NCBI GenBank assembly: GCA_015069195.1
Contig: SVJA01000003.1
Location: 129,838 to 193,837, forward strand
Direction: 5' to 3'
Source: Oscillospiraceae bacterium
GTDB taxonomy: Bacteria > Bacillota > Clostridia > UBA1212
Length of the DNA: 64,000 nt
This document shows, piece by piece, positions 4,366-48,730 of this stretch. Within the stretch, counting starts at the first letter, position 1, and each line of letters begins with the position of its first letter. The notes below the pieces were generated by a model. It saw nothing but the letters and a program-made list of their open reading frames with translations, did not search any database and was not told the DNA's origin. A program made the translations under genes and the position numbers.

Positions 4366-4842
4366 TTGGAAAGAAAAAGATTGGAAAAAGAAGAGCTTCT
4401 TGAAAGAAGAGAAGAACTTTTAGAGAAGTATTACGCACCTACAGCTAAAAATTGCAAACCTTTCATTCTCACCAAGAGAGAGCGCAAGATTCTCGGCATT
4501 GGCAGAGATCAGGGTAAGGCAGTTTTGAAGTATGCAAGAATATCACCCAGAAAAGTTAAAATTGTTTTGGATTTGATTAAAGGTAAGAGCTTGGATGAGG
4601 CATACGCTATTGTCCGTTATACACCTAAGGCAGCAAGTGAGCTTATTTACAAGCTTCTTAAGTCTGCTGAAGCTAATGCAGTTAACAACTTTGAGCTGGA
4701 TGCTGATAAGTTATATGTAGCTGATGCTTATGCATCACAGGGTCCGATTCTTAAGAGAATGCAGCCTGTATCCAGAGGCCGCGGTAACAGAATCAACAAA
4801 AGAACCAGCCATATAACAGTAGTTGTTAAAGAGAGAGTTTAA
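4366..4842 (+). CDS. rplV: 50S ribosomal protein L22 with ~45-aa Glu/Lys/Arg-rich N-terminal extension
   Basis: L22 core ([18 protein letters not shown]...) from residue ~47; only in-frame start is TTG 4366 after GGAGGA 4352-4357; no ATG closer to the core. Confidence 0.85.
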
Positions 4843-4856
4843 GAGGAGGTTGTATA

Positions 4857-15637: not shown

Positions 15638-15711
15638 TAATTTGTTTACAAACTTATTGATGGTAGTTAAGTTATTTTTTAGTGTTCAAGATATTCATGG
15701 AGGGATATATA

Positions 15712-24610: not shown

Positions 24611-24699
24611 AGTATTTTTCGGTTGTGAGAATTTGTGTATAGGTGTATTATATTTGTGCAAATAAACTTTATTTACAGCAATTTCCGGGATTGATAGAT

Positions 24700-26712
24700 A
24701 TGCACAGAATTCTTCTTGATAAATCAAAAATTATTGTGTTTTTACTGATTGTATCGGTTATTTTCGTTTTTGCATCTTGTGCGGGGCAGGCGGAGAATAC
24801 ATTGTTCCCTTCCGAAAATGAGACTACGGCAGAAGTTTCGGTTCCGTCATCGTCAAATTCTTTCAATGTAAAAACTTTTGAAAGTTTAGAGGCGATTTCC
24901 GCATACAGCCATTGTGAAAAAGTGACAATACAAGGAAATATAGAACTTGCCGGGGATATTGTGTTTAATAATCCTGTCGATATAACGGTAAAGGGTTTTA
25001 TTGTGTCAAATACGCATTCCGTTATTGTAAAGAGTGATAAAAAAACCGTGATAAATGTAGATATAACATCCGGAAGTACTGTATCCGAGGGCGCAATAAT
25101 AATTGATGCCCCGAATTCTGCATTGAATTGGACAGGCGGCTGTGTGCCGGGCGTAGAGCATGTAATTGAAAATATGAATGTGAAGTCATTTAATGACAAT
25201 GACCTGAGCGAAAGGCTTACGGGCGGAACGGGCAAATCTGTTTTTGAAAGCGTTTCACTAAAAGATCCGAAAGGCTCTGATATCGGTTGTGAGTTCTCGG
25301 TAAAAGGGAATGTAATAACTGTACTTTATCCTTTTTCTTTGCATGAAAATAAATTGCGTGATTCCGAAATAGAAATTTCAGCGTCTGATTGTAAAGAAAA
25401 ATTAATTACGGACAGGAATAAAAATAAAGCGGACAAGCTTTCCCTTAACGGTAAGTATGTGTTGACGTTGAGTGACGACGAAGGCAATACACGCGGATAT
25501 TATTTAAATATAAAACGTCGATGTGAAAGTCTTCCGGTTATTTCAGTTTATACGGATGGCGGAAAGAGCATAGACAGCAAAGAAACATATGTTTCGGCTC
25601 AGCTTGGAATTGATTGCAGCGGTTCGAAGGAATACAAAAATTTTTCACTTGATACAAAATCAGTGGGAATTAAAGGTCGTGGAAATGCATCGTGGAATTA
25701 CACTGACAAAAAAGCGTACAGACTTAAATTTGATGAAAAAGTTTCTGTTTTAGGTATGAAAGCCGACAAAGATTGGGTTCTTGTGCCAAATTACTTTGAT
25801 AAAAGTCTGATACGGAATGTTACTGCGCACGAACTTGCAAAGCAGATGGAAAATCTTGAGTACACGCCTACTCATATTTTGGTGGATTTGTTTTTGAACG
25901 GCGAGTATCGCGGTGTCTATACGATTGCTGATAAGATAGAGGTATCAAATAACAAGGTTGATATCGAAACCTCCGACAACGTAGTAAATCCGGGATTTTT
26001 GATAGAGATAGGTTGGGATTATTCATCTGAAAACATATATGGTAAAGACTATTTTGATGTTGAAATTATAAAGAGACTGTATGTAAAAGATCCGGAAATT
26101 ACGTCAAGATATAACAGCCGTATGAACGATATTATCGAGTATGTAAGATTGACGGACAGGGCGATTTCGTCAGGCGAGGGATACGAGAAATACATCGATG
26201 TTGATTCAATGGTAGATTGGTTTATAATCGCCGAACTCACAAACAATACTGAGATGGCATTTTACAGGAGTTGTTATTTTTACAGAGAAGAGGGAGGCAA
26301 AATTAAAATGGGCCCCGTCTGGGACTTTGATATGGCATTCGGAAACCACAGCGCAGATATATCCGGATATGACGGATGGGCAACTGCTGAGGCAGAGTTT
26401 GCGTATGTAAATGACACATGGACTACTTATCTTATAAAAGATAAAGTGTTTATGGATAAAGTACGTGCACGCTGGAATGAAAAGAAAGAAATCCTTTTAA
26501 AGACTGCAGAAGATACAATAGACAATTCTCTGGCGATAATAGGTGATTCGCAAACAGAAAACTTCAAAAAGTGGGATATTCTAGGCAAGCAAATCGGAGA
26601 GGGAAATGTCGATTACAATGAGTATGATACATACGAAAAGCAGGTTGAATATGTGCGTGAATTTGTGGAAAAACGTGCGGAATGGATGACCAATCGGCTG
26701 AACAACGGTTGA
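24700..26712 (+). CDS. CotH-family (spore-coat protein H kinase fold) lipoprotein
   Basis: Lipoprotein signal peptide ...VFASC from ATG 24700; CotH motifs GRGNASWNY, YRLKF, LRN; upstream GTG 24643 start less likely. Confidence 0.8.
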   Translation: MHRILLDKSKIIVFLLIVSVIFVFASCAGQAENTLFPSENETTAEVSVPSSSNSFNVKTFESLEAISAYSHCEKVTIQGNIELAGDIVFNNPVDITVKGFIVSNTHSVIVKSDKKTVINVDITSGSTVSEGAIIIDAPNSALNWTGGCVPGVEHVIENMNVKSFNDNDLSERLTGGTGKSVFESVSLKDPKGSDIGCEFSVKGNVITVLYPFSLHENKLRDSEIEISASDCKEKLITDRNKNKADKLSLNGKYVLTLSDDEGNTRGYYLNIKRRCESLPVISVYTDGGKSIDSKETYVSAQLGIDCSGSKEYKNFSLDTKSVGIKGRGNASWNYTDKKAYRLKFDEKVSVLGMKADKDWVLVPNYFDKSLIRNVTAHELAKQMENLEYTPTHILVDLFLNGEYRGVYTIADKIEVSNNKVDIETSDNVVNPGFLIEIGWDYSSENIYGKDYFDVEIIKRLYVKDPEITSRYNSRMNDIIEYVRLTDRAISSGEGYEKYIDVDSMVDWFIIAELTNNTEMAFYRSCYFYREEGGKIKMGPVWDFDMAFGNHSADISGYDGWATAEAEFAYVNDTWTTYLIKDKVFMDKVRARWNEKKEILLKTAEDTIDNSLAIIGDSQTENFKKWDILGKQIGEGNVDYNEYDTYEKQVEYVREFVEKRAEWMTNRLNNG

Positions 26713-26731: not shown

Positions 26732-27625
26732 GTGAAAAAAACTGATAATGTGAACAGATACATAAAAAATACCGCGCTCATTCTTGCTTTTCTGACAGCG
26801 GTCTCATATATATTATTTATTTGGAAGTCTCCTGTGTTTGATATATTGGAAACTGCTGTGAACACTGTTGAAGCGGAAAGCTTTACTGTTGTGATGAATA
26901 AAGACGGTAAAGATACGGAGTATAGAATCGTTATAGACTTTAAAAATGAAGATATAGCGATGTTATCGGAAAGTAATGCCGGGAATTTTGTTAGCGGAAT
27001 ATACGGTGGTTATTACTTTGAATGTGAATTTATTTCCGGGGAAAATAAGTTCAGCGGCTCTAAAAAAGATATAACGAAAGACATAGAGACTTTATTCGTA
27101 CGATGGAATGATATAAAAAACGGAACCGTTGACAGCTTTGATGCGGAAAGTGTGTTTGATTTTTTAAGCATTATAACAGGAACGGACAGCAAGGTAATAA
27201 GGGCTCACATAGATGAGACAAATTTAAAAAAAACGGTTCTGTCGGCGTTTAAAATATTAAGTGATCGTGAGTGGATGACGGAGTGTCTTAGTCATAAAAG
27301 AGTTATAAAGACCGATTCCGTAACGAATTGTTTTGATTTTAATTTTACGATTCTGGGCGAAACAGTACACGGTCTTTTGATAGAATGCGCGAAAACTTCA
27401 TTTGCCGAATTTGCAATCGAAGATATTACGAGGAAAATCAAGTCGTTAGAGAGCACGATGGTCTTAAAAACGGACCTCACAACAAAACACGGATACCTTA
27501 AAACTGTTACTATGTACGGTGAAAAAAACGGCACAGAATTCAAACTCGAATATGAATTCAAAAACATAGGGAAAACGAAAATAGAAGCCAATGAGTTATC
27601 AAAATATATTGAATATTGCATTTGA
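26732..27625 (+). CDS. hypothetical N-terminally membrane-anchored protein
   Basis: GTG start after GGAGG; single N-terminal TM; no recognisable family. Confidence 0.6.
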   Translation: MKKTDNVNRYIKNTALILAFLTAVSYILFIWKSPVFDILETAVNTVEAESFTVVMNKDGKDTEYRIVIDFKNEDIAMLSESNAGNFVSGIYGGYYFECEFISGENKFSGSKKDITKDIETLFVRWNDIKNGTVDSFDAESVFDFLSIITGTDSKVIRAHIDETNLKKTVLSAFKILSDREWMTECLSHKRVIKTDSVTNCFDFNFTILGETVHGLLIECAKTSFAEFAIEDITRKIKSLESTMVLKTDLTTKHGYLKTVTMYGEKNGTEFKLEYEFKNIGKTKIEANELSKYIEYCI

Positions 27626-27634
27626 TATTTTTTC

Positions 27635-27663
27635 TTGCCAACATTATTGTTTTCAGTTATACT
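27635..27663 (+). promoter_or_regulatory. sigma-A type promoter upstream of hpf (TTGCCA-17-TATACT)
   Basis: Motif spacing exact; ~110-nt leader. Confidence 0.45.
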
Positions 27664-27783
27664 AAATTTAACAAAAGGACAGGCATCGGGAGCGGTTCGG
27701 TGCGGGGATTAAGATTTGATATGGAAATTTTTACACGGCTGACTTAATACCGGTGGCATCCTATATAAAAGGAGGAATTAGGC

Positions 27784-28314
27784 ATGTTAGTAAAGTTTAA
27801 TTGCAAGAATGCAAATTTGTGGAACATCACAATTGAGGCGATGGAAAAGAAAATCGAGTCGAGATTTTCGCGTTACTTCGATACAGATGATGTTGCGGTA
27901 AATGTAAAGGTTACCGAGCAAAAACTTGGATTTAAGGTTGAGCTGACAATGCCGTATTTAGGTCAGCAGCTCAGAGCAGAAGTTACTGATAAAGAAAGCC
28001 CTCTTGCAGCATTTGACAAAGGCATGGATGTTATGGAAAGACAGATGTCGAAATGCAAGACAAAGCTCAAGAGAAATAAGCGCCAAGTGATAGAGGTTGC
28101 CGCAGCGCCTGCAGAATATGCTGAAGACGATACGGATTACGAAGTAGTCAGAACAAAGAATTACGAAATGAAACCGATGACGGTTCAGGATGCTATTTTA
28201 AATATGGAAATGCTCGGACATGCATTCTATATGTTCCGCGATGCAGATACTGGTTCTTATGCTACCGTATATAAGAGGGCAGACGGTGCTTACGGCTTGA
28301 TTGTGCCGAAATAA
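27784..28314 (+). CDS. hpf: ribosome hibernation promoting factor, long form
   Basis: N-terminal RaiA/HPF domain + C-terminal dimerisation domain. Confidence 0.88.
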   Translation: MLVKFNCKNANLWNITIEAMEKKIESRFSRYFDTDDVAVNVKVTEQKLGFKVELTMPYLGQQLRAEVTDKESPLAAFDKGMDVMERQMSKCKTKLKRNKRQVIEVAAAPAEYAEDDTDYEVVRTKNYEMKPMTVQDAILNMEMLGHAFYMFRDADTGSYATVYKRADGAYGLIVPK

Positions 28315-28336
28315 AGTGATAAAATAAGCCTTGGTA

Positions 28337-28373
28337 AAGGCGGCATGCCGCGTATACGTGGTATGCCGCCTTT
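28337..28373 (+). terminator. intrinsic terminator after hpf
   Basis: GGCGGCATGCC...GGTATGCCGCC + TTTTATGTT. Confidence 0.55.
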
Positions 28374-28439
28374 TATGTTGAAAACAATTATACGATTTAT
28401 GTATACAAGCATACAAATCTTAAGGAGCGATGTTCCTCT

Positions 28440-29270
28440 ATGGGAGAAAACGATTTTACAAATGACACAGTGGAAAATGATTTTTCCGATATCGAAAAGG
28501 ATATTCCGACAGAGGATTCTTTGACGGGAAATACAGAGCCTTCCGATGCTGTTGTTTCGGCAGATATTTCCGAAAGTGAGCCGGAAGAAAATATTGATGC
28601 GTCAGAACCTTCAGAGTCTGATGAGATTGCTGAAGACGGTGACGGGTCGTCTGAAAATGAGGCAGACGATGTTCTGGAGCAAAAAGATCATAAGGCTGAC
28701 CTTGACGGATACAGAGCATATCGCAGAAGAACTGTTCAGCAGGACGAAAATGCGAAAAGTGCAGAGAAAAAGGTTTCTTCTAAAAAGTTTACTGATATAA
28801 AGTTCGGAAGTATTTCCATTTATGCGATAGTGCTTGCTTTGTTTACATTGCTGGACTTCTTTGTGGTACATATTTTTGCGAGTAATCAGTCATATAATGT
28901 TTCTGACAAAATACTTTCAGCGCTCGGATTTGATGCGTTGCATTTTACAAATATCACATATTCTCAAATTTGTCTGGGACTCGGATATTTTGTTGCGTTC
29001 CTTCTCGGAGGTATAGTTCTTTTCATACTTATGAAGATTCTCAACAAGTTATTTGAAAATTTCCCGATTGGTAAAATCGGCGGAGCTTATCCTGCTATTG
29101 TACTGGGAATATTTACAATAGTTTTTATTGTGGGATTTGCAATTGCGTATTTTTCGAACGATGCGCTTCTCATTCCGGCTGTATATCGTTGGGGTGCTCC
29201 TGCAGCCGCTTATTTGGGCGGATTGATGTTTTACGGAGCGTCTAAGCTTCATGTAGGTATAGAATACTGA
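28440..29270 (+). CDS. hypothetical protein: ~110-aa acidic disordered N-terminus + 4-TM C-terminal domain
   Basis: D/E/S-rich N-terminus, then hydrophobic helices. Confidence 0.65.
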   Translation: MGENDFTNDTVENDFSDIEKDIPTEDSLTGNTEPSDAVVSADISESEPEENIDASEPSESDEIAEDGDGSSENEADDVLEQKDHKADLDGYRAYRRRTVQQDENAKSAEKKVSSKKFTDIKFGSISIYAIVLALFTLLDFFVVHIFASNQSYNVSDKILSALGFDALHFTNITYSQICLGLGYFVAFLLGGIVLFILMKILNKLFENFPIGKIGGAYPAIVLGIFTIVFIVGFAIAYFSNDALLIPAVYRWGAPAAAYLGGLMFYGASKLHVGIEY

Positions 29271-29290
29271 TAATAAAAGAGGTTGTAGTT

Positions 29291-31720
29291 ATGCGAAAAG
29301 AACATATTGAATTATTTGAAAAAGTAAAAAAACTCGGTCAGGAGCAGCTGTTAGCTTTTTACGAAGAGCTTTCTGCTGAAGAGCAGGATGCATTGGTTGC
29401 TGATATAGAAAGTATCGATTTTGCATTGATGAAGGAGCTTTTTGAAAATGCAGGAAAGCCGACTGCAAACAATAAGGACGCTGTTTTGTCTCCCATAGAG
29501 GCTGCTGACAAAACAAATATGTCTGCAGAGCTTGCCGATAAGTTTGTTACGGCAGGAGATAGAGAACTTTCGAAAGGCAGAGTAGCAGCTGTTACGATGG
29601 CAGGCGGACAGGGTTCGAGACTCGGACACGATGGTCCGAAAGGTACTTATGATATAGGACTTCCTTCACATAAGTCACTTTTTGAGATACAGTGCGACGG
29701 ACTTAAAAAGATTTCCGGAAAGTGCGGCAAAAACATTCCGTGGTACATAATGACAAGTCAGATAAATCACGCTGACACAGTTGCTTTCTTCAAAGAAAAC
29801 AATTACTTCGGATATTCCAAGGATGATATTTTTTTCTTCCCGCAGAATATGATACCGGTTGTTTCGATGGACGGAAAACTTCTTCTTGAGAGCAAAAGCA
29901 AAGTTCTCAGAAGTCCCGACGGAAACGGCGGTCTTTTCTCAGCGGTAGTCAGCTCCGGTGCTCTTGCAGACATGCAGAAACGCGGCGTAAAATGGGTGTT
30001 TATTTGCGGAATAGATAACTGTCTGGTAAATATGGTTGATCCTATGTTTGTAGGTTACACATTGGAGTCAGGCGTACCTGCTTCTGCAAAATCTTTCGTA
30101 AAGAGAAGTTTTGATGAGAAGGCAGGTATTTTGTGTCGCAAGGATGGAAAGCCGGGAGTTATAGAATATACCGAGGTTCCTGAGAAAGAAGCGAAGATGA
30201 CCGATGAAAACGGTTGCTTTGTATACGGTGACGCAAATGTTCTGAACTACGTTTTTGATATAAGCGTTCTTGAGAGCATTGCCGGAAACGGAATGTGTTA
30301 CCATACCGCTTGTAAGAAAATTACTTACTTAAACAGCGACGGCGAAATTGTTACTTCAAAGTCTCCCGATGCATATAAATTTGAATTGTTCTTATTTGAT
30401 GCATTCGATTTTATCGACGATATGAGAATACTCAGAATAGACAGAAAACTCGAGTTTGCACCGGTAAAGAACAAAGAAGGAGAGGACAGCCCGGCTTGGG
30501 CAAGAGATTTGTATATGAAAGCTAATAAGATTCAGATGAAAACGCCCCTCGTTGAGATGGACGGCGACGAGATGACAAGAATTGTATGGAAAAAGATAAA
30601 AGATATTCTTCTTACTCCTTACATTGACCTTAAAACTGAGTACTATGACCTCGGTATAGAAAACAGAGATGCGACAGATGACCAGGTTACAAAGGATTCA
30701 GCAAATGCTACTAAAAAATACGGTGTAGCAGTAAAATGTGCGACAATCACGCCCAATGCCGCACGTGTAAAAGAGTTCAATTTAAAGAAAATGTACAAGA
30801 GCCCGAACGGCACAATCCGTTCCATTCTGGATGGCACCGTGTTCCGTGCACCTATCCTTGCTGACGGTATCAGCCCCCTTGTAAAAGGCTGGGAGAAACC
30901 TATCGTTATCGCAAGACATGCGTACGGTGACATTTATTCGGCTATCGATGCTAAGGTTCAGAAAGGTTCGACGGCGGAACTCGTAATTACAGCACCTGAC
31001 GGAACCGTTACAAAATCTGTTATCCACGATTTCGCAAAGACAGACGGTATCGTAATGGGTATGCATAACGAGGATTCTTCGATAGAAGGTTTTGCGAGAG
31101 CTTGTTTTGAATATGCTATATCTGAGAAAATGGATTTGTGGTTCTCCTCAAAGGATACCATTTCAAAGACTTATGACCACCATTTCAAAGATATTTTCAA
31201 TGATCTTTACGAAAATGAGTACAAGGGAAGATTTGAAGCACTCGGAATTACATACTTCTACACATTGATTGACGATGCGATTGCAAGAGTTATGAAATCA
31301 AAGGGCGGATTTATTTGGGCTTGTAAGAACTATGACGGTGACGTATTCTCCGATATGCTTGCAACTGCTTTCGGAAGCCTTGCTATGATGACATCGGTAC
31401 TTGTATCGCCTCACGGTTATTTTGAGTACGAGGCTGCTCACGGAACTATTCCGAGACATTACCATAAGTACCTTGCAGGAGAGAAAACTTCGACCAACCC
31501 GATTGCTACAATATTTGCATGGACTGGTGCTTTGGCAAAGAGAGGCGAGATGGACGGTATCGACGAATTGGTTTCATTTGCAAAAAGAATGGAAGATGCA
31601 GTTCTCGAAACAGTTGGTTCAGGTTATATGACAGGTGACCTTGCACTTATTTCGGAACTTCCCGAAAAACATGTACTTGACCTTGATGAGTTCCTTAACA
31701 AGGTTGCTTCAAATCTTTAA
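29291..31720 (+). CDS. in-frame fusion: UDP-sugar (UDP-GlcNAc-type, UDPGP family) pyrophosphorylase domain (aa 1-415) :: NADP-dependent isocitrate dehydrogenase, eukaryote-like subfamily II (aa 416-809)
   Basis: MAGGQGSRLG / PDGNGG UDPGP motifs; then MKTPLVEMDGDEMTRIVW... IDH; no stop or RBS at junction 30536. Confidence 0.8.
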   Translation: MRKEHIELFEKVKKLGQEQLLAFYEELSAEEQDALVADIESIDFALMKELFENAGKPTANNKDAVLSPIEAADKTNMSAELADKFVTAGDRELSKGRVAAVTMAGGQGSRLGHDGPKGTYDIGLPSHKSLFEIQCDGLKKISGKCGKNIPWYIMTSQINHADTVAFFKENNYFGYSKDDIFFFPQNMIPVVSMDGKLLLESKSKVLRSPDGNGGLFSAVVSSGALADMQKRGVKWVFICGIDNCLVNMVDPMFVGYTLESGVPASAKSFVKRSFDEKAGILCRKDGKPGVIEYTEVPEKEAKMTDENGCFVYGDANVLNYVFDISVLESIAGNGMCYHTACKKITYLNSDGEIVTSKSPDAYKFELFLFDAFDFIDDMRILRIDRKLEFAPVKNKEGEDSPAWARDLYMKANKIQMKTPLVEMDGDEMTRIVWKKIKDILLTPYIDLKTEYYDLGIENRDATDDQVTKDSANATKKYGVAVKCATITPNAARVKEFNLKKMYKSPNGTIRSILDGTVFRAPILADGISPLVKGWEKPIVIARHAYGDIYSAIDAKVQKGSTAELVITAPDGTVTKSVIHDFAKTDGIVMGMHNEDSSIEGFARACFEYAISEKMDLWFSSKDTISKTYDHHFKDIFNDLYENEYKGRFEALGITYFYTLIDDAIARVMKSKGGFIWACKNYDGDVFSDMLATAFGSLAMMTSVLVSPHGYFEYEAAHGTIPRHYHKYLAGEKTSTNPIATIFAWTGALAKRGEMDGIDELVSFAKRMEDAVLETVGSGYMTGDLALISELPEKHVLDLDEFLNKVASNL

Positions 31721-31817
31721 TTCTCGATAAAAAAGATTTTAACGCGATGCGAAGTAAACGCTTCGCATCACGTCATAAAAATAAAAATAAGGCGAAAGCC
31801 GAAGGGAGATATTATAA

Positions 31818-33131
31818 ATGGGAGTTATTAAATTCGATTATAAAAATGCTGAGAAATTTGTTCAGCCTTACGAGATTGATATGCTTTCTGCTCAGGTTTC
31901 AGCAGCACACGATATGCTTCATAACAAAACCGGCGCTGGCAACGATTATGTGGGTTGGGTAGACCTTCCGAAGAATTTTGACAAAGAAGAATATGCTCGC
32001 ATAAAGGAGTGCGTAGAACGCATAAAGTCTGACTCTGATGTTCTTATCGTAATCGGTATCGGTGGTTCTTACCTCGGTGCAAGAGCTGCGATTGAGATGC
32101 TCACAGGTTCTTTCTACAACCTTGAGGCAGTAAAAAATCGCAAGCAGACAGCAGTACTTTTTGCAGGTTGCAACATCAGCGCTTCATATATGTGCGATCT
32201 TATGAAGATTATTGACGGATATGATGTTTCCGTAAATGTTATTTCAAAATCAGGTACAACAACAGAGCCTGCCATTGCTTTTAGATTCCTCAAAGAACAT
32301 ATGGAAAAAAAATACGGCAGAGAAGGTGCTGCAAAGAGAATTTATGCGACTACAGACAAGGCTCGCGGAGCACTTAAGAAACTTGCCGATGCAGAAGGTT
32401 ACGAGACATTTGTTATTCCGGATGATGTTGGCGGAAGATTTTCAGTTCTTACTCCCGTAGGACTTCTTCCTATCGGTGTTGCAGGTGCAGACCTTGATAA
32501 GATTATGGAAGGTGCCGAGAAAGCTTACGAAGAGTATTTGGAGCCTGATGTTACAAAGAATGATTGCTACAAATATGCTGCTGTCAGAAATGCTCTTTAC
32601 AGAAAAGGCAAAGATATCGAAATTCTTGTAAACTATGAGCCTTCGCTTCACTACATTACAGAATGGTGGAAACAGCTTTACGGCGAGAGCGAAGGAAAAG
32701 ACCAGAAAGGTATATTCCCTGCAGGTGTTGACTTCACTACAGACCTTCACTCTATGGGACAGTACATTCAGGACGGTCAGAGAAAGTTGTTTGAGACTGT
32801 TATATCTGTTGCAACTCCTAAACAGAACATCATTTTACAGGTCACAGAAGACGATATTGACGGTCTTAACTACCTCGCGGGAAAAGATATGGATTATGTA
32901 AACAAACAGGCTGCAAAGGGTACTATGATGGCTCACGTTGACGGCGGTGTTCCGAATCTTGAAATAGAGATTCCTGCTATGGACGAATTCAGCTTCGGCG
33001 CACTTGTTTACTTCTTTGAGAAAGCTTGCGGTATCAGCGGCTATATGCTCGGAGTAAATCCGTTCAATCAGCCCGGTGTAGAAGCTTACAAGAAAAATAT
33101 GTTTACATTGCTTGGTAAGCCGGGTTATTGA
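31818..33131 (+). CDS. pgi: glucose-6-phosphate isomerase (short Firmicutes type)
   Basis: PGI family, SIS motifs [11 protein letters not shown]. Confidence 0.92.
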
Positions 33132-33199
33132 TAAGTTGACTTTCAAAGCCGATGACTGAGTTTTCTCTGCCGTCGGCTTTTATTCTATGGAGGATTTGC

Positions 33200-35566
33200 A
33201 TGGGAAATTTACAAGCAAAGAAAAGAATAGTATGTATGATGCTAGCACTGGTGTTTTCGTTGCAGTTGTTTTTGTTACCTGAAATGGTCTCTCACGGAGC
33301 ACAAAGTACAGAACTGACATTTAACGGTGAAAAAGTTGCAGCAAACATTAGTGGTTATTCTTCTGCCAATAACGGCAACTATACTTTTTCTTCAAAACTT
33401 ACAATAGAGTTTGATGAACCGAGCAAGGGATATTTTAACCGTTATACAATCGAGTATATTTCTGATGTTTACATCAGCGGTACTGTTTATTATAAGCTTG
33501 ACGGCCGTACAAAAAGAGAGGAATTCTTTCTTGAGAGTGGTACAAAAGCATCGTTTTCGTCACTTATAGACGGATATCTTGATTCTAAAACAGGAAACCG
33601 ATTGGAAAAGATTGTTTTCGAGCCGCTTTCAAAAGATACTGCTTCGCTCAGGATTTTGTCGATAAAAACAACAACATACGATGTTTTTAAAAGTGAGACT
33701 GCATACATAGAAAATGACCGTTTCAAAGTAGGTTGCTGCCTTATATGGGGTGGCGGTCTTAACTATATCGAAGATAAAAAAGATAATGATTCTACCGTGA
33801 CCAACATGCTCAATCATTGCGATACGGGACGATTGGTTCAGCAGTCTTATTACGGCACATCGGAATCTCCGTACAGACCGGGTTACTATAATAACTCAGT
33901 GTGGGGATACAATCCGGTGCAGGGCGGAGACCAGCACGGAAACAAGAGTAAGTTGGTGGATTTTTCGATAAATACAGATACAATTTATGTGAAGTGCAGA
34001 CCTCTTGACTGGTCAAAAGACGATGAGGCGACTCCTTCGTATATGGAAAATGTGTACAAGCTAGAAAAGGATCATATAAAAGTCGATAACAGATTTATTG
34101 ATTTTTCGGGTTACAGTCACGGTAAGGCAAGACACCAGGAGCTTCCGGCTTTTTATACGATAAGCTATCTCGATACATTTACTTTCTACAACGGAACAAA
34201 ACCGTGGACGGGAGGTGATCTTACTGTAAAAAAGAATCTTCCGTTCTGGGGAGATCCTTCAACAAACGCACAGTGCTATTTCAATGTGAAGAAGGGCAAT
34301 ACAGAGACTTGGTGTGCATGGACAAGCAGTGAGAAAAAATACGGACTCGGACTCTATACGCCAAATGTAAGTATTTTACTTGCAGGAAGACACGCATACA
34401 ACGGAAGTAAAGATCCGGCAGATAGTGCGACAAATTATGTTGCTCCCCTCATAACATCACTTATGCAAAGTTATGAGCCTTTCCAGTATAGTTACTATAT
34501 TACCGCAGGCTCTGTAGAAACAATAAGATCGGTATTCACACAAAATAAAACAAACCAGACTTATGCGGATTTATCATATGATACGACAAATCTTTCTTTT
34601 GACAAATCATATGAAGTGAATGCACTTACCGGCATAAAAAATGTAACGATTACTCACGATGCAACCAAAGGCGCTGCGGTGTATAAAGCTCCTGCGACGG
34701 CAACTTCATATAAAGGCGATTGTGATTCTTATTCGTACATTTATTTTTCAAGTGATGTAAATACGCAGAATTACAGATACATAGTTTTTTCGTATATGTT
34801 GCCAACGACAAATATGACAAATGACTATAACGCTGAGTTTTTTGTTTGTACAGGTACACGTCAGAAAGCTGAGAGCGGATATTCGCACAAGGAGAGTCTG
34901 ACACGCGACGGCAAGTTCCATTCGGTAGTAATAGATATGTATACAAAGAAAGCCGAAAACGGAAGTTATCTGTGGCCGTCGGGCGGAGAGAGACTAAACT
35001 GTATAAGGCTTGATTTTGACAAAGCCATGCCTAATGACATGTTGTATATAACAGGTTTTGGACTTGCCAAGACTCTTTCGGAAGCGAATAATTATGCATC
35101 TGAATTCTTGAAAACTCCGTCATCCGGCGGAAGTACAACTCCGTCACAAACACCCGGATCGAATATAGTTATCCCTACATTTGATCCTGAGATAACATCA
35201 GGTGTGGCTACAGCACCATCTGTTCCTGCTACATCAGCACCGGCAGGTGAAACTGAGCAACCGACTCAGACTCCTGATTGTGAATCACCACTGGTTACTG
35301 ACGTCCCTGTAAGTCCGGGAAATAATGAGAATTCTGACGAAAACGTTGATTATCCTGATGATGAATATATCGAAGAGGATGAATACAATTCCTCAGGAAT
35401 TAGTATGTTCGGCATAATTGCGATAATAGCAGGTGTCGGGTTACTCATTATCGCAGGTGCAATTATACTGATAGTGGTTTTGGTAAAAAAGAAAAAGAAA
35501 AAAGCAGCGGCAAATATCGCAGCTGAACCTGCTGTCGATCTTGAAAACGATTGCAGTATAATTTAA
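33200..35566 (+). CDS. surface protein paralog A: signal peptide, conserved Cys/Trp-rich central domain, beta-rich domain, P/T/S linker, C-terminal TM anchor + KKKKKK
   Basis: ATG 33200 after GGAGGA; ~50% identical to downstream paralog; no known family recognised. Confidence 0.75.
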   Translation: MGNLQAKKRIVCMMLALVFSLQLFLLPEMVSHGAQSTELTFNGEKVAANISGYSSANNGNYTFSSKLTIEFDEPSKGYFNRYTIEYISDVYISGTVYYKLDGRTKREEFFLESGTKASFSSLIDGYLDSKTGNRLEKIVFEPLSKDTASLRILSIKTTTYDVFKSETAYIENDRFKVGCCLIWGGGLNYIEDKKDNDSTVTNMLNHCDTGRLVQQSYYGTSESPYRPGYYNNSVWGYNPVQGGDQHGNKSKLVDFSINTDTIYVKCRPLDWSKDDEATPSYMENVYKLEKDHIKVDNRFIDFSGYSHGKARHQELPAFYTISYLDTFTFYNGTKPWTGGDLTVKKNLPFWGDPSTNAQCYFNVKKGNTETWCAWTSSEKKYGLGLYTPNVSILLAGRHAYNGSKDPADSATNYVAPLITSLMQSYEPFQYSYYITAGSVETIRSVFTQNKTNQTYADLSYDTTNLSFDKSYEVNALTGIKNVTITHDATKGAAVYKAPATATSYKGDCDSYSYIYFSSDVNTQNYRYIVFSYMLPTTNMTNDYNAEFFVCTGTRQKAESGYSHKESLTRDGKFHSVVIDMYTKKAENGSYLWPSGGERLNCIRLDFDKAMPNDMLYITGFGLAKTLSEANNYASEFLKTPSSGGSTTPSQTPGSNIVIPTFDPEITSGVATAPSVPATSAPAGETEQPTQTPDCESPLVTDVPVSPGNNENSDENVDYPDDEYIEEDEYNSSGISMFGIIAIIAGVGLLIIAGAIILIVVLVKKKKKKAAANIAAEPAVDLENDCSII

Positions 35567-35620: not shown

Positions 35621-35772
35621 GTGGCGAAGCTACCGATAATCGTAAGTGAAAAAATTTGCAACTAAAACCGTTTTTTTACGAGATATAGACATATAAGTTG
35701 TGTTTTATTTTACAATATTGTTAAATAATATTAACGATTTTGTTTCAAAAATATTTTATAAGGAGATTTCGG

Positions 35773-38190
35773 ATGATACGAAAGTTTTTTAATAATGAAA
35801 CAAGTAAAAAAATAGTTTCGTTATTTATTGCGATGATATTTACAGTACAGTTGTTTTTTGTGCCGGGAATGGTTTCTCACGGTGCAGAAAATGTGAACCT
35901 TTCTTTTAACGGAAAGAATGTCCCTGTAAGTGTAAGCGGTTATACATCTGCATCACAAGGTCGATATACTTTTAAATCAAAACTTACTTTTGATTTTTCA
36001 AACCCGGCCGGTGCGAAGTTTAACCGATATACTTTAAACTATACTGCGAATGCTTGTATAGGAGGACGAATATATTATAAAGTGTCCGGTGCGACTAAAA
36101 GTGAAGAATTCTTTTTGGAAAGCGGCACAAATGTTTCATTTTCGTCATTGATTGACGGATACCTTGATTCAAAGCAGGGCAGCAGTATTGAGAAAATTGT
36201 TTTTGAACCGCGTTCTGCGTCTACCGCACAGCTTAAAATAAGTTCCGTAAAAACCGTTGTGTACGAAGTGTATAAAAATCAGACGGTGTACATAGAAAAT
36301 GACCGCTTTAAAGTAGGTTGCTACCTTATATGGGGCGGCGGTCTTAACTACATCGAAGATAAAAAAGACAACGATCCTACCGTGACGAATATGCTTAATC
36401 ATTGTGATACGGGACGTTTGGTACAGCAGTCATATTACGGTTCTATGGAATATCCGTATCAGCCGGGAAATTATAACGGTTCTACATGGGCATATAACCC
36501 TGTACAGGGCGGTGACCAGCACGGAAATAAAAGCAAATTAGTTGACTTTGTCGTAACGTCAAATTCTATTTACGTCAAATGCAGACCGCTTGATTGGTCT
36601 AAAAATAACGTACTGACTTTTTCGTATATGGAGAATGTTTATAAACTGGAAAATGATCACATAAAAGTCGATAATCGCTTCATTGATTTTTCCGGTTATA
36701 ATCACGGAAGAGGTAAACATCAGGAACTTCCTGCTTTTTATACAATAAGCTATCTTGACACATTTACTTATTATGACGGTAAAGATCCGTGGACAAATGA
36801 TACTCTTACTGTGAAACGAAATCTTCCGTTCTGGGGTAATTCCGCAACAAGCTCTCAGTGTTACTTCGGTATGGAAAATGAAAATACCGAGACTTGGTGT
36901 GCGTGGACCAGCAAAGACAAAGGTTACGGTCTGGGATTGTACACACCGGATGCCAGCATATTGCTTGCAGGCAGATACAACTATAACGGCAGTAAAGAAC
37001 CGAAAAATAGTGCCACAAACTATGTTGCACCGCTTATAACATCAGTAATGCAAAACTATGTTCCGTTTCAATATAGTTACTATATAACTGCAGGTACGGT
37101 GAGTACAATCCGTTCTGTATTTACTAAAAATCATGAAGCGTTGACATCCGGAAGCGACAAGATTGATACAACTAATTTAAGCTTCGATAACGCTTCTGAT
37201 ATAAAGGCATTTTCAACCAGAAAAGATGTAATGATATCTCACGACAAACTTACAGGCTCGGCGGTATTAACTGCGCAGACCCCTTCACTTTCAGGTGCTT
37301 GCGATGCTTATGCTTATTTAAAATTTTCAAATGTAAATACAAAAGACCACAGATATGTCGTTCTTTCATACAAAGTTGAATCTTCTGACCACTATAACTC
37401 ACGCAACCTTGAACTGTTTGTTTGTGCCGGAGATATAGAGGAGGCGACAGGCGGTTATTCTTACAGAGAACGTTTGTCTGTTGATGGTACTTTCCATTCT
37501 TTGATTATAGATATGTGGAATAAGAAAGCTTTTAACGGAAGTGCGCTGTGGCCGTCAGGCGGTGCTCCGCTTCATGCTGTCAGATTGGATTTTGACGGCG
37601 CGAGTGCCGGCGACAGGTTATCCATAACGGGATTTGCTCTTGCGGCATCTTATTCTGAAGCTACGGCGATTGGAAATTCCTTTAACAAGGCGGCAAATTC
37701 TGTGTCAAGTTCAGAAAATGGTTTTACAGCCGGTACAAATATTGTAATACCTACAAAGCCGGCAGCTGACACACCTGCAAAACCGAACAATTCAAATCCG
37801 GGTAATAATAACACAAATAATAATGCTTCGAGCTCAGATAATTACGGTTCAAATTCAGATAATAACAGTACCATTACTGATACAGACAGTACAGATAATT
37901 CGACTGACAATTATCCGAACAACAATTATGATACCGGTGAAGATAATCCGGGAGGCAATTTCGGTGAAGACGGTTATGGTAAAGGCGACGACAATGAAAA
38001 AGGCATGAACATTGTACTTATTGTGTGCATATCTGCTTTTTGCGGTGCTGCAATAGCCGGTATTATTACGACCATTGTTTTACTGATTAAAAAGAAGAAA
38101 AATAAAAAAACACAGGTGCCGGTAAATGAGCAATCGGTAAAAACTGACATTCCTGCCGATGAGGAATTCACGGATTGGAGCATAATATAA
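35773..38190 (+). CDS. surface protein paralog B (same architecture; Asn/Ser/Thr/Asp-rich linker)
   Basis: ATG 35773 after AAGGAG; collinear with paralog A. Confidence 0.75.
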   Translation: MIRKFFNNETSKKIVSLFIAMIFTVQLFFVPGMVSHGAENVNLSFNGKNVPVSVSGYTSASQGRYTFKSKLTFDFSNPAGAKFNRYTLNYTANACIGGRIYYKVSGATKSEEFFLESGTNVSFSSLIDGYLDSKQGSSIEKIVFEPRSASTAQLKISSVKTVVYEVYKNQTVYIENDRFKVGCYLIWGGGLNYIEDKKDNDPTVTNMLNHCDTGRLVQQSYYGSMEYPYQPGNYNGSTWAYNPVQGGDQHGNKSKLVDFVVTSNSIYVKCRPLDWSKNNVLTFSYMENVYKLENDHIKVDNRFIDFSGYNHGRGKHQELPAFYTISYLDTFTYYDGKDPWTNDTLTVKRNLPFWGNSATSSQCYFGMENENTETWCAWTSKDKGYGLGLYTPDASILLAGRYNYNGSKEPKNSATNYVAPLITSVMQNYVPFQYSYYITAGTVSTIRSVFTKNHEALTSGSDKIDTTNLSFDNASDIKAFSTRKDVMISHDKLTGSAVLTAQTPSLSGACDAYAYLKFSNVNTKDHRYVVLSYKVESSDHYNSRNLELFVCAGDIEEATGGYSYRERLSVDGTFHSLIIDMWNKKAFNGSALWPSGGAPLHAVRLDFDGASAGDRLSITGFALAASYSEATAIGNSFNKAANSVSSSENGFTAGTNIVIPTKPAADTPAKPNNSNPGNNNTNNNASSSDNYGSNSDNNSTITDTDSTDNSTDNYPNNNYDTGEDNPGGNFGEDGYGKGDDNEKGMNIVLIVCISAFCGAAIAGIITTIVLLIKKKKNKKTQVPVNEQSVKTDIPADEEFTDWSII

Positions 38191-39361: not shown

Positions 39362-39513
39362 GCTGAAAATGCGTCTCCTTCCTCTGAAAAATCTCACGCC
39401 GTCTATTTTACCACAGAGAAATAAAATTGCCACATTGAATTAAAAAAAGTTTTATTATATGACGAATTTTGTTATAATTCATACATATTCCGGATATGAA
39501 AGGACGAATAATT

Positions 39514-40965
39514 ATGAGTGATGGTGTAGCACTTCCTACAAGTGACAGAACGACGGTCAATGAGAAACCGGCAGATATATGGGTTTGCCCCGAATTTAAA
39601 GTATCAGGTGTGTTTTCTTCTCATATGGTACTCCAGCGAGACAGGGAAATTTCCGTGTGGGGCTTTTCAACTGCAGTGGGCAGCGTGGTTACTGCAGAAT
39701 TTATGGGAGATACTGTAACGGCGCTTGTAGATAGCGACAACAAGTGGCTCGTAAAACTTCCTGCAAAGGCATATACAAGAGTGCCTCAAACTATGAAAAT
39801 ATACGATGATAAGGGTCACGAGACAATTTTTGAAGATATTCTTATAGGTGATGTGTGGCTTGTCGGCGGTCAGTCAAATGCAGAACTTCCGCTTGCACCA
39901 TGTATGTGTATGACTCCGGATATTGTTTTTAACGAAAATGATAATTTCAGATTATTTATGCAGACGCAGAATTATGTCTACACGCATCAGGAGTATTGCA
40001 ACTATCCGCAGAGAGATATAGTTAATCCGGATTGGCAATGGAAACGCCCGTCTGAGGGAGCGTCACTTGAGTTTTCTGCAATCGGTTGGTATTTTGCACA
40101 AGAACTGACAAAACATATCGATATCCCTATCGGAATGATAAATGTTTCTGCAGGCGGCGCCTGTATAAGAGAACTTGTTCCCGAAGAACTTGCGTACTCT
40201 ATGGGCTACACATTCGGTGCAAACGTCAGGGAGGCCGGCTACTACAATGCATTGATAAATCCTTTCATAGGACTTCAATTCAAAGCAATGATTTTCTTCC
40301 AGGGTGAAAGCGAAGGCGGCGACAAAACTTTTGCAATGCGCTATGCCGACGAACTTTCTCAGCTCGTTGCAAACGAAAGAGAACTGTTTGGTTTTGATTT
40401 CCCGTTTTATAACATGCAGCTTACGGAATATTCCGATCCCGGAGCGTTTCATTTCCCTTGGCACTACATCGTGCGTGTTCAGCAGTTTGACGCGTTAAAA
40501 ATTATTCCCGACTCGGCTTTGATAGTAACTATGGATTACGGCAACCTCGAGGGCTACGATGATATTCATTCACCGCTGAAAAAGCCTCTTTCGGACCGTG
40601 CTGTGTTGCTTGCTCTGGCAAGAGAGTACGGTATAGGAAAGGAAGAAGAAGTTTCATCCCCGATGCCTGTAAAGGCTGAATTGTCTGCTGACAAAAAACA
40701 GGTGGTTATCACTTTTGAAAACGTGCGTGAAGATCTCACAGTCAAGGGCGCATCGTTAAATGGTTTTTGCCTTGGCGATTATGAAAACAGAATTTCCGTC
40801 GAAGCAATCATTTCCGGCAAAAATACAGTTACCGTAAATGTCCCCGAAGGTTGCGAATTTGATTCAATCGGTTACGCTGTCCAAAACAGTATCACAGGTG
40901 ATTTCGCAAACCTCAGAAATTCAATCGGTATGCCTTGCCCGGCGTTTATGGTTGGGGTAGAGTAA
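39514..40965 (+). CDS. sialate O-acetylesterase-like (SASA/SGNH) carbohydrate esterase
   Basis: WLVGGQSNAE motif; ATG 39514 after AAAGGA. Confidence 0.75.
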   Translation: MSDGVALPTSDRTTVNEKPADIWVCPEFKVSGVFSSHMVLQRDREISVWGFSTAVGSVVTAEFMGDTVTALVDSDNKWLVKLPAKAYTRVPQTMKIYDDKGHETIFEDILIGDVWLVGGQSNAELPLAPCMCMTPDIVFNENDNFRLFMQTQNYVYTHQEYCNYPQRDIVNPDWQWKRPSEGASLEFSAIGWYFAQELTKHIDIPIGMINVSAGGACIRELVPEELAYSMGYTFGANVREAGYYNALINPFIGLQFKAMIFFQGESEGGDKTFAMRYADELSQLVANERELFGFDFPFYNMQLTEYSDPGAFHFPWHYIVRVQQFDALKIIPDSALIVTMDYGNLEGYDDIHSPLKKPLSDRAVLLALAREYGIGKEEEVSSPMPVKAELSADKKQVVITFENVREDLTVKGASLNGFCLGDYENRISVEAIISGKNTVTVNVPEGCEFDSIGYAVQNSITGDFANLRNSIGMPCPAFMVGVE

Positions 40966-43223: not shown

Positions 43224-44888
43224 TCAGAACAATCCACTTATCACGCCGTCTGCATCAACGTCGATTTTCTCGGCTGCCGGTACTTTCGGAAGACCGGGCA
43301 TTGTCATAATTTCGCCTGTGAGAGCTACGATGAAGCCTGCACCTGCTGAAATTTTTACGTTGCGAACAGTAACCGTGAAGTTTTCCGGAGCACAAATCTT
43401 TGTAGCATCGTCAGAGAAGCTGTACTGTGTTTTTGCCATACAGATTGGCAAGTTGCCGAATCCGTTTGCTTCGAGCTGGGCAATTTGCTTCTTTGCTTGT
43501 GCGGTGAATGCTGCGCCGCTGCCGCGGTAGATTCGTTTAACGATGGTGTCGATTTTGTTTTCGATTGTATCGTCAAGGCCGTAGCTGAATTCAAATGTGC
43601 TCGGTGTTTCGCAAAGTCTTACAACCTCTTGTGCGAGTTCTATGGCGCCGTTGCCGCCTTCTGCCCAGACATTTGACAAACATACGTTAACGCCTAATTT
43701 ACGGCATTTTTCAGCGATGAGAGCTATTTCTGCGTCTGTGTCGGTTGGGAAACGATTGATAGCAACAACTGCGGGGAGTTTGTATACATCTTTTATATTT
43801 GAAACGTGTCTTAAGAGGTTCGGCATACCTGCTGCAAGAGCCTCCAAGTCTTCACCGCCGAGCTCTGTTTTGGGAACACCGCCGTGCATTTTGAGAGCAC
43901 GAACCGTTGCTACCACAACAACTGCCGACGGTTTGAGTCCGCCGAAACGGCACTTTATATCAAGGAACTTCTGCGCACCGAGGTCTGCGCCGAAACCGGC
44001 TTCTGTTACTGTATAATCTGCAAGCTTCATAGCCATTTTTGTTGCAATCATTGAGTTACAGCCGTGTGCGATGTTTGCGAAAGGTCCGCCGTGAACGAAT
44101 GCCGGTGTACCTTCCAAAGTCTGAACGAGGTTCGGTTTGATAGCGTCCTTGAGGAGTGCTGTCATTGCACCGTGAGCATTGAGCTGACCTGCAGTAACCG
44201 GTTTTTCGTCATAAGTGTAGCCGACGATAATTTTTGAAAGTCTTTCCTTGAGGTCGGTGATTGACGAAGCAAGACAGAGAACAGCCATAATTTCAGATGC
44301 AACGGTGATATCGTATCCGTCCTCTCTCGGAACGCCGTTTACACGGCCGCCGAGACCGTCAGTTACGAAACGAAGCTGTCTGTCGTTCATATCCACACAA
44401 CGCTTCCATGTGATTCTGCGAGGGTCAATATTGAGGGCGTTGCCCTGATAAATGTGGTTGTCGAGCATTGCTGCAAGAAGGTTGTTTGCGGCCCCGATTG
44501 CGTGGAAGTCGCCTGTAAAGTGAAGATTGATGTCCTCCATAGGAACAACCTGTGCGTAGCCGCCGCCTGCAGCACCGCCTTTTACGCCAAAAACAGGGCC
44601 GAGTGAAGGCTCTCTGAGTGCGGCAATAACATTCTTTCCGATTTTATTAAGACCGTCTGCAAGGCCGATAGAAGTCGTTGTTTTGCCTTCGCCTGCAGGG
44701 GTAGGGGTGATGGCTGTAACCAAAATGAGTTTGCCGTCTTTTTTGTCGCTGTTTAAAAGGCTGAGATCAACTTTTGCCTTGTATTTTCCGTATTGTTCGA
44801 GATTATCCTCGGGAATACCTGCCTTTGCGGCAATTTCCGTAATATTTTTCATTTGTACCGACTGTGCAATTTCAATATCGCTTTTCAT
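43224..44888 (-). CDS. fhs: formate--tetrahydrofolate ligase
   Basis: FTHFS family along full length. Confidence 0.95.
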
Positions 44889-44953
44889 CGTGTAATCTCC
44901 TTTGAAAATATCAATTAATGTTTAACAATTTTATGTTCAGCAATTATTGTTTT

Positions 44954-44987
44954 GCAAGCCGTGCCGCCCAAAAGGCGGCACGGCTTG
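44954..44987. terminator. perfect 15-bp GC hairpin between purL end and fhs start
   Basis: GCAAGCCGTGCCGCC-caaaa-GGCGGCACGGCTTGC. Confidence 0.45.
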
Positions 44988-45005
44988 CCTTTATCTAATC
45001 TTAAA

Positions 45006-48707: not shown

Positions 48708-48730
48708 TTATTTTTCCTCCGAATCTGACA

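Follow-up and report, generated by a model that had tools for sequence, protein, structure and literature searches.

Can a sugar-nucleotide enzyme and an isocitrate dehydrogenase (IDH) really be made as one protein, and if so, how did they come to be joined? The question is raised by a stretch of DNA from an Oscillospiraceae bacterium (contig SVJA01000003.1, positions 129,838 to 193,837 of the forward strand, assembly GCA_015069195.1). In what follows, the window is this whole 64-kb stretch, and the fusion gene is one open reading frame (ORF) within it. The ORF lies on the plus strand at 29291..31720, begins with ATG, ends with TAA and encodes 809 residues; an initial annotation made from the DNA letters had described it as a UDP-sugar pyrophosphorylase fused to a eukaryote-type NADP-dependent IDH. 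Comparison of this gene with its fused and unfused relatives led us to the reading that it encodes a real bifunctional protein, born from two neighboring and coupled genes, with an IDH that in this lineage would be obligately fused to its partner. We put the probability of this reading at roughly 0.78. Below, P numbers denote protein cluster representatives (P0001 being the database protein identical to the 809-residue product) and L numbers denote gene loci.

Two complete enzyme modules in one reading frame

Searches of Pfam and NCBIfam bore out the description of a single 809-residue ORF that holds a complete UDPGP-family enzyme followed by a complete type-II NADP-IDH. In Pfam, UDPGP (PF01704) matched residues 91-408 (E = 4e-42; 144.8 bits against a cut-off of 22) and Iso_dh (PF00180) matched residues 420-788 (E = 1e-54). 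The NCBIfam model NF006156 (NADP-IDH) spanned residues 412-809 with 635.1 bits (cut-off 335), TIGR00127 scored 536.7 bits (cut-off 397.15), and the type-I IDH models were far under their cut-offs. No NCBIfam model matched the N-terminal half, and it is for this reason that the NCBI annotation pipeline (PGAP) names the identical protein only 'NADP-dependent isocitrate dehydrogenase'.

The N-terminal half (residues 1-410; 29291..30520, plus strand) was identified through its Pfam UDPGP, PDB and Foldseek matches as an AGX/UAP-type UDP-N-acetylhexosamine pyrophosphorylase (UAP). It matched mouse, human and fungal UAP1/AGX1 structures, among them 1vm8, 1jv1 and 9g53, with E values of 1e-80 to 5e-68, as against 4.8e-15 for the best UDP-glucose pyrophosphorylase (UGPase) and 6e-4 for USP, and Foldseek superposed it on Aspergillus fumigatus UAP1 (6g9w) with a TM score of 0.83 and a root-mean-square deviation of 3.2. 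The earlier label of UDP-sugar pyrophosphorylase is therefore correct for the family but can be narrowed: judged by these matches, the half is of the UAP/AGX type (E about 1e-80) and not a UDP-glucose pyrophosphorylase, the UGPases being far behind. The motifs on which the label had been based (MAGGQGSRLG, PDGNGG and EFAPVKN...DSP...ARDL) were all located in this half. In a HMMER alignment, AGX1 residues R115, K122, Q196, G222, N223, D253, G290, E303, Y304, N327 and K407 correspond to R110, K117, Q185, G211, N212, D242, G279, E292, Y293, N316 and K393 of the fusion protein. We take these 11 positions to be the uridine-, N-acetylhexosamine (HexNAc)- and phosphate-binding and nucleotidyltransferase signature sites. 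All of them are invariant in the 28 fused proteins described below except N316, which is at least 90% conserved. AGX1 H331 is replaced by Tyr in the window protein, and columns that are invariant among standalone UAPs are also invariant among the fused ones.

The C-terminal domain of eukaryotic UAPs (about residues 427-505 of AGX1) is absent from the N-terminal half, and the AGX1 alignment stops at residue 426 of 505. The idea that the IDH replaces this domain was considered and rejected because standalone bacterial homologs are already as short as the N-terminal half. These clostridial proteins, annotated as 'UDPGP type 1 family protein', are 407-431 residues long and up to 65% identical to it. 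Since the lengths agree, the IDH has been appended with no domain replaced. Literature searches returned no characterized bacterial member of this UDPGP type 1 group. From UTP and HexNAc-1-phosphate the module is predicted to produce UDP-GlcNAc and/or UDP-GalNAc for envelope glycans, a role suggested by sister UAPs whose fusion partner is either LicD (a phospho-sugar/phospho-alcohol transferase family) or a phosphohexomutase.

The C-terminal half (residues 412-809; 30524..31717, plus strand) is a type-II, homodimeric-class NADP-dependent IDH according to NCBIfam, PDB and Foldseek. It is 66% identical over its whole length to the NADP-IDH of Clostridium thermocellum (4aou; 618 bits), and Foldseek gave TM scores of 0.83-0.85 against IDH structures. 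The word 'eukaryote-type' thus holds as a label for the type-II family, but the nearest solved structure is that of C. thermocellum. For residue mapping, the human IDH1 reference was checked by its length of 414 and marker residues. The 12 isocitrate and metal ligands (IDH1 T77, S94, N96, R100, R109, R132, Y139, K212, T214, D252, D275 and D279; T487 to D688 in fusion numbering) are present in the window protein and invariant in 28/28 fused proteins, and the residues that contact the NADP 2'-phosphate (IDH1 R314, H315 and K260) are conserved as R722, H723 and K669. By these comparisons both modules are intact and show conservation typical of active enzymes, and the products predicted for the IDH module are 2-oxoglutarate and NADPH. 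In anaerobic Clostridia, IDH usually serves an incomplete oxidative branch of the tricarboxylic acid (TCA) cycle. A housekeeping enzyme of this branch would fit here, because in two other fused lineages (L001, L003 and L004) the fused gene stands directly after citrate synthase and before SHMT.

A conserved family of fused proteins

The initial annotation had named a missed stop codon or frameshift as a finding that would turn the fusion into two ordinary genes. However, 13 contigs assembled independently, in JGI, ENA and NCBI assemblies, encode exactly this 809-residue protein, and over the 2430 nt of the ORF two of them show a difference of 1 nt from the window. The gene order on the 13 contigs is always CotH, 297-residue ORF, HPF, 276-residue ORF, fusion, PGI. 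An ortholog search for the same architecture returned 28 clusters at the 90% identity level that carry both domains, with lengths of 779-835 residues and identities to the query from 100% down to 54%. These proteins align end to end, and their length variation is confined to the linker. In an exhaustive HMMER search of 1.84 billion 50%-identity representatives, P0027 alone spanned query residues 5-806 and all remaining matches were single-domain proteins, indicating that the architecture is confined to one family. As read from these sequences, the UAP-IDH protein is a real, conserved fusion shared by a group of as yet uncultured Clostridia from gut and rumen.

The claim that no such architecture had been described was upheld in one sense and not in another. 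Full-text literature searches returned no description of a UAP-IDH fusion, although the library searched was limited and the absence is not proof; on the other hand, the architecture is already present in public databases, where it is annotated solely as IDH. A search made with the N-terminal half only did not list P0001-P0028, so its table is unusable for counting fused members.

Several other long IDH entries were examined as candidate fusions and rejected. P0029, P0030, P0031 and P0034 (450-540 residues) contain internal tandem duplications of IDH segments, which resemble assembly artefacts and inflate the apparent length diversity of the family. P0038, P0060, P0074 and P0101 owe their length to over-extended N-terminal start calls.

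Loss of the IDH start signals at the junction

The junction (L-Y-M-K-A-N-K-I-Q-M, residues 407-416; 30509..30538, plus strand) was defined by comparison with unfused junctions, and the fusion protein reads ...ARDLYMKANKIQMKTPLVE... across it. Unfused relatives and 4aou begin M-x-K-I-x-M-x-x-P-[LIV]-VEMDGDEM. On this basis, IDH homology starts at residue 411/412 and the ancestral start corresponds to Ala411 (codon GCT), and not to residue 416, where the IDH had previously been taken to begin. M416 was rejected as the old start because it is a normal IDH residue that is conserved internally in unfused IDHs. Nor is the other nearby methionine, M409, conserved: the fused family has M, L, V, I, Y or R at this position. 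When the window sequence 'YMKANK-IQM' is aligned with the unfused 'YLKVHK-EEQE*-MAK-INM', the difference is as expected from one small deletion, with the uap stop codon, the icd Shine-Dalgarno (SD) sequence and the ancestral ATG all lost.

Two points of the initial annotation were confirmed at the nucleotide level, namely that the junction (AAG ATT CAG ATG AAA ACG) has no in-frame stop codon and that no SD precedes the IDH methionine. For the window gene (SPECIFICALLY), the SD duplex energy was -3.5 kcal/mol at M409 and -4.1 kcal/mol at M416. Both values are at the background level, which was set by the 27 in-frame internal ATGs of the fusion ORF (median -3.5 kcal/mol). Real icd starts in relatives reach -11.1 to -11.6 kcal/mol, and the SD of the fusion gene itself, the AAGAGG read from the sequence 8 nt 5' of its ATG (29277..29282, plus strand), has a duplex energy of -7.0 kcal/mol with the 16S 3' tail. 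Because the junction ATGs are at background SD level and M409 is unconserved, the window lineage in all likelihood makes its IDH solely as the C-terminal part of the fusion. The annotation had proposed as much; it had also named an independent start for the IDH as the finding that would restore two separate genes, and by SD energies the window lineage has none.

An AlphaFold2 (AF2) model built from the 28-sequence alignment had a mean pLDDT of 85 and a pTM of 0.79. Its junction is ordered, with pLDDT 92-93 over residues 401-420 and a helix at 401-411 followed by the first IDH strand at 420-424. The low-pLDDT loops of the monomer model (546-554, 586-592, 682-686 and 719-723) are consistent with IDH regions that become ordered in the dimer or in a ligand complex. 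Foldseek detected no solved chain that covers both halves (TM score normalized to the query at most 0.49).

Origin from adjacent genes

The nearest non-fused relatives of the UAP half point to where the fusion came from. At L005, L008, L009 and L095 a separate icd lies directly 3' of uap, with an 11-nt overlap (L005), a TAATG overlap (L008), a 4-nt gap (L009) or an ATGA overlap (L095). In all four, an AAGGAGG-like icd SD sits within the last codons of uap ('...KVHKEE...'). Overlap or near-contact of this kind, with the SD inside uap, is a classic arrangement of translational coupling. Fused and unfused states also occur at one and the same locus, judging by the common synteny of L095 (CdAMP_rec-holB-PSP1-uap-icd, unfused) and L002 (CdAMP_rec-holB-PSP1-[uap::icd], fused), whose PSP1 proteins are 62% and IDHs 78% identical. 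In another branch, a LicD gene lies between uap and icd; it is separate in L089 and fused to UAP in L007, where the order UAP-LicD, IDH, PGI, NagB-like includes icd-pgi as in the window.

IDHs linked to a UAP carry a signature of their own. The motifs HGT[IV]P[RK]HY and YDGDVFSDMLA, present in the window as HGTIPRHY and YDGDVFSDMLA, were found in 28/28 fused and 5/5 adjacent unfused IDHs but in 0/92 other IDHs, which have HGTV[QT]RH and YDGDVMSDM[VIL] instead. Because the signature is shared by all UAP-linked IDHs and by none of the others, the uap-icd linkage arose once. Among the matches listed in a survey of more distant UAP-bearing genomes (best match at most 56% identical), 76 of 80 had no IDH in the fetched flanks. 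Standalone UAPs have a 6-15-residue tail after 'AR.LY.' in 110/110 cases, and the ancestral form is therefore an unfused UAP with its tail.

The fused proteins fall into two types according to the distance between EFAPVKN and VEMDG. The long-linker type (34-50 residues; clade C, comprising P0007-P0011, P0013-P0016 and P0028) has kept the uap tail, as illustrated by P0007, whose linker '...DPQRWNN...' can still be recognized as the stretch that ends the unfused P0202, P0219 and P0237 ('...NPRKWEEQI*'). Members of this clade often retain a relic SD with an in-frame ATG at the old start (-10.1 kcal/mol in L002, -12.1 kcal/mol in L011 and L017), and L003 has a relic SD with a linker ATG (-9.4 kcal/mol). 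Clade C would thus represent stop-loss or frameshift fusions from which free IDH may still be made. In the short type (32-33 residues), which includes clade A (P0006, P0012 and P0017-P0027) and clade B (the window protein, P0002-P0005 and L088), little of the tail remains, and the stop codon, SD and ATG are gone.

The trees used to place these proteins were neighbor-joining distance trees with 100 bootstraps and midpoint rooting. Clades A, B and C each had bootstrap values of 99-100 in the UAP tree, and unfused pairs were interleaved among the fused clades in both the UAP and IDH trees. For example, the window IDH grouped with the unfused IDH of L007 (bootstrap 95), and the unfused P0202 and P0219 nested within clade C (bootstrap 96-100). 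Pairwise identities agree with this picture: the window protein is 62% (UAP) and 83% (IDH) identical to the unfused L007 proteins and 59% and 81% identical to those of L005, but only 46% and 67% identical to the fused protein of L001. Because the unfused pairs are interleaved and the window is closer to L007 and L005 than to the fused L001, there were at least two fusion events and, as far as these trees can be read, probably three or more. P0004 and P0005 are placed differently in the UAP and IDH distance trees, and the exact count may be two, three or more.

P0121 (L088) had at first appeared to be the nearest unfused relative of the window gene. It was rejected as such because the gene is in fact fused and carries a 1-nt indel; restoring one C gives ...SPALARKLYMKENKIKM. 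In this single-run assembly (Logan contig SRR31481459_5363; positions 1441-1600 of L088), the loss of one base from GGCC(C)G, immediately ahead of the junction, creates two ORFs with a 4-nt overlap that imitate an unfused pair. The split may reflect either a sequencing error or a genuine frameshift of recent date.

Discussion

The scenario that best accounts for these observations begins with an ancestor in which uap was followed by icd, the two genes overlapping or nearly touching and translationally coupled through an icd ribosome-binding site inside the end of uap. In the window lineage, a small deletion would then have removed the end of the uap tail together with the stop codon, the embedded SD and the icd start, joining the two frames almost seamlessly. 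From that point on, IDH would be made only as the C-terminal half of a polypeptide of about 90 kDa. Since type-II IDH is an obligate homodimer, a dimer of about 180 kDa bearing two UAP modules would be expected. The main effect of the fusion would be to fix 1:1 co-production of two enzymes that were already co-translated, with no new reaction. The protein would tolerate the join, since the C-terminus of UAP and the N-terminus of IDH each lie free at the surface, as is also suggested by other clostridial IDHs whose N-termini are fused to unrelated upstream genes (GntR-FCD and TrmB-like). Composite proteins formed from operon neighbors are a well-known phenomenon and both enzymes belong to textbook families; the UAP-IDH protein reveals no new chemistry or mechanism. 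The pairing had been called mechanistically odd. Its genetic origin from adjacent, coupled genes turns out to be ordinary.

Several points weigh against this account or parts of it. The UAP and IDH reactions have no substrate or product in common, so that any selective benefit of the fusion is conjectural. All 28 clusters of fused proteins derive from metagenome assemblies of Clostridia or Oscillospirales. The UAP-linked IDHs also differ from other IDHs close to the active site: the position of IDH1 T313 in the NADP-binding loop is Pro in 28/28 fused proteins (P721 in the window, about nt 31451-31453), and a Phe stands between the metal-binding Asp residues (DVFSD; F686, about nt 31346-31348) at a position occupied by Met in other Clostridia and by Gln in human IDH1. 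Finally, leaderless or SD-independent internal initiation, or post-translational cleavage, may release IDH in ways that SD energies do not capture.

The alternative that survives best, though we consider it doubtful, is that the linkage and repeated fusion of uap and icd reflect a functional or physical partnership. UDP-HexNAc synthesis might, for example, be tuned through 2-oxoglutarate or NADPH, the two enzymes might regulate each other allosterically, or the IDH dimer might serve as a scaffold for UAP. A linkage of single origin has been kept across deep divergence (UAP halves 46-62% identical) while the other neighbors changed (citrate synthase/SHMT, PGI or holB/PSP1), and fusion followed at least two or three times. 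The active-site-proximal signature of the UAP-linked IDHs, the ordered junction of the AF2 model (pTM 0.79), and the position of the pair beside pgi (window lineage and L007) and a NagB-like gene (L007), both genes of hexosamine-related metabolism, all fit such a partnership. However, overlapping genes can fuse through a single indel, so that recurrence may reflect mutational opportunity, and fusions are hard to reverse, which makes their persistence no proof of selection. The same UAP terminus has joined LicD and PGM/PMM, the same IDH terminus has joined GntR-FCD and TrmB-like proteins, most of the surveyed UAP genomes (76/80) lack a nearby IDH, and, again, no metabolite is common to the two reactions. 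A more specific proposal, which we regard as unlikely, holds that the UAP-linked IDH, marked by Pro at the T313 site and Phe between the Asp residues, forms a complex with the pyrophosphorylase and thereby ties the supply of envelope sugar nucleotides to TCA-branch flux, 2-oxoglutarate or NADPH. If true, this would be a previously unknown link between central carbon and nitrogen metabolism and cell-wall precursor synthesis in anaerobic Firmicutes.

It is improbable that free IDH is the main product of the window gene, by initiation at codon 409 or 416 or by proteolysis, with the 90-kDa fusion as a minor species. Other fused lineages do keep a relic SD and ATG (L002, L011/L017 and L003, at the energies given above), as do the GntR-IDH and TrmB-IDH genes, and the window has in-frame ATGs at both codons. 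In the window, however, the ancestral ATG has become GCT (Ala411) and the SD energies of -3.5 and -4.1 kcal/mol are background; M409 is not conserved, and M416 is an internal residue in unfused IDHs as well. The junction, moreover, is predicted to be structured, unlike a flexible linker open to cleavage.

That one half has decayed or is non-catalytic, leaving a regulatory UAP-like domain or a dead IDH, is very improbable. PGAP names only the IDH, with no NCBIfam match to the N-terminal half, and the UAP halves diverge faster (46-62% identity) than the IDH halves (67-83%), but the same rate difference is seen in unfused pairs. In addition, the mapped AGX1 and IDH1 residues are invariant or at least 90% conserved across the 28 fused proteins and both halves are modeled confidently onto their folds. 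The related suspicion that the fused copy is a pseudogene remnant, with a standalone IDH elsewhere, is countered by the 12 ligands that are invariant in 28/28 and by the position of the fused gene after citrate synthase in two other lineages; a second standalone IDH was looked for, and the 64-kb window holds none, nor does it hold citrate synthase or aconitase.

A sequencing or assembly artefact that merged two genes through a missed stop or frameshift is effectively refuted: although relatives' genes overlap in different frames, such that a single-base error could mimic a fusion, and L088 shows the reverse effect of a 1-nt indel splitting a fused gene, the identical protein occurs on 13 contigs with a 1-nt difference, 28 clusters are fused, and the uap tail, SD and ATG are physically missing at the junction, which no base-calling error can produce.

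We therefore return to a bifunctional protein that arose from coupled neighbors. One practical consequence is that a UDP-HexNAc pyrophosphorylase would be overlooked when the metabolism of these gut and rumen Clostridia is reconstructed, because the annotation hides the UAP half. The family also offers an unusually complete fusion series, from coupled genes through stop-loss fusions with a relic SD and ATG to a seamless, obligate fusion. In any case, the uap-icd pair provides a guilt-by-association hint of a connection between cell-wall sugar-nucleotide synthesis and the production of 2-oxoglutarate and NADPH.

Surroundings of the fusion gene

The fusion gene, its AAGAGG lying in the gap, begins 20 nt past the end of an upstream 276-residue ORF (28440-29270, plus strand), a spacing that makes co-transcription of the two genes plausible. 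The product of this ORF is acidic near its N-terminus and contains several hydrophobic segments. Together with the ORF at 26732-27625 (plus strand), it flanks the HPF gene, and neither has a Pfam match.

The conserved downstream neighbor in the window lineage is pgi, encoding glucose-6-phosphate isomerase (31818..33131, plus strand; Pfam PGI). Its SD has a duplex energy of -12.6 kcal/mol, and the icd-pgi order is kept on all contigs with P0001. The fusion gene and pgi are separated by 97 nt, and this spacer contains a strong GC-rich hairpin of 15 pairs (31740..31775), which terminator scoring called as a minus-strand terminator: on the plus strand, which carries both flanking genes, the hairpin is followed by an A-run, and its T-run belongs to the minus strand. 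Folding of the 106-nt region 31715-31820 gave -26.9 kcal/mol (z = -4.8), and an Rfam search of 27000-34000, which includes the hairpin, gave no match. Possible roles for the hairpin are weak or bidirectional termination and stabilization of the mRNA.

Directly past pgi are two large plus-strand ORFs without a Pfam match, at 33152-35566 (804 residues) and 35740-38190 (816 residues). The first has a signal- or transmembrane-like N-terminus, a Pro/Thr/Ser-rich region and a C-terminal transmembrane segment followed by a Lys run, features that suggest a cell-surface protein; it stays downstream of pgi on other P0001 contigs. The rest of the window is a typical Firmicutes chromosome. Listed ORFs lie at 18345-20759 (minus), 24643-26712 (plus), 39496-40965 (plus) and 43224-50035 (minus), and the listed context genes encode an LtaS-like sulfatase-domain protein, a CotH kinase-family protein and a SASA-family carbohydrate esterase. 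Formate-tetrahydrofolate ligase, PurL and PurD genes are also present, as is RpoA at 15682-16665.

Comparison with known enzymes and other fusions

Eukaryotic UAP1/AGX1 has the same fold as the N-terminal half, and the catalytic motifs GGQGxRLG...PKG, PDGNGG, DN, EYxE and EFAPxKN are common to both. The N-terminal half and all of its bacterial homologs differ from the eukaryotic enzymes in lacking the C-terminal domain of about 80 residues and thus represent a bacterial short form. Relative to standalone bacterial UAPs, the window protein has its short C-terminal tail truncated and leads straight into the IDH. On the IDH side, the isocitrate, metal and NADP 2'-phosphate ligands are common to the C-terminal half and other type-II enzymes (4aou/4aoy, Desulfotalea psychrophila 2uxq, and human IDH1/IDH2), and the N-terminal motif of the C. 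thermocellum enzyme, K-I-x-M-x-x-P-L-VEMDGDEMTR, equals that of the C-terminal half. However, these type-II IDHs own a start codon, whereas the C-terminal half has Ala411 where its relatives have the initiator Met, and it bears the UAP-linked signature.

Both partners have also been joined to other proteins. UAP-LicD (695 residues; P0123-P0130, P0188 and P0199; L007 6001-8088, with separate genes at L089 422-2508) and UAP fused to a phosphogluco/phosphomannomutase (PGM/PMM; P0263, 1002 residues) are joined at the UAP C-terminus, as in the window, but to different partners and with obvious pathway sense. Full-text literature searches returned no description of bacterial UAP-LicD proteins. There are also giant proteins that combine an ADH_N domain with two or three UDPGP domains in tandem (P0244, 1447 residues; P0241, 1888 residues).

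At the IDH N-terminus, also the point of attachment in the window, a GntR-FCD regulator (624 residues in all; more than 10 clusters, including NCBI assembly GCA_001304955.1) and a TrmB-like methyltransferase (618 residues; 142 member sequences) have been joined in place of UAP. The GntR-FCD-IDH gene lies downstream of an HMGL-like gene that may encode a Re-citrate synthase, and a transcription factor fused to IDH may merit its own look. Further IDH fusions among Clostridia involve RepL-like-IDH, HAD phosphatase-IDH and IDH-SEC-C; example entries for IDH fusions are P0059 (L092/L093, gene 3001-4875), P0102 (L094, 3001-4857), P0052, P0036 and P0112. Unlike the window gene, the GntR-IDH and TrmB-IDH genes keep the icd SD and ATG at the two junctions inspected (-10.2 and -8.2 kcal/mol, respectively), and free IDH can probably still be made from them.

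The closest comparison remains that with the adjacent uap-icd pairs of L005, L008 and L009, which are 55-59% (UAP) and 79-81% (IDH) identical to the halves of the window protein and have the order, orientation and IDH signature of the fusion. They differ from it in encoding two polypeptides, with a uap tail of 6-15 residues that bears the icd SD, and an icd with an ATG of its own.

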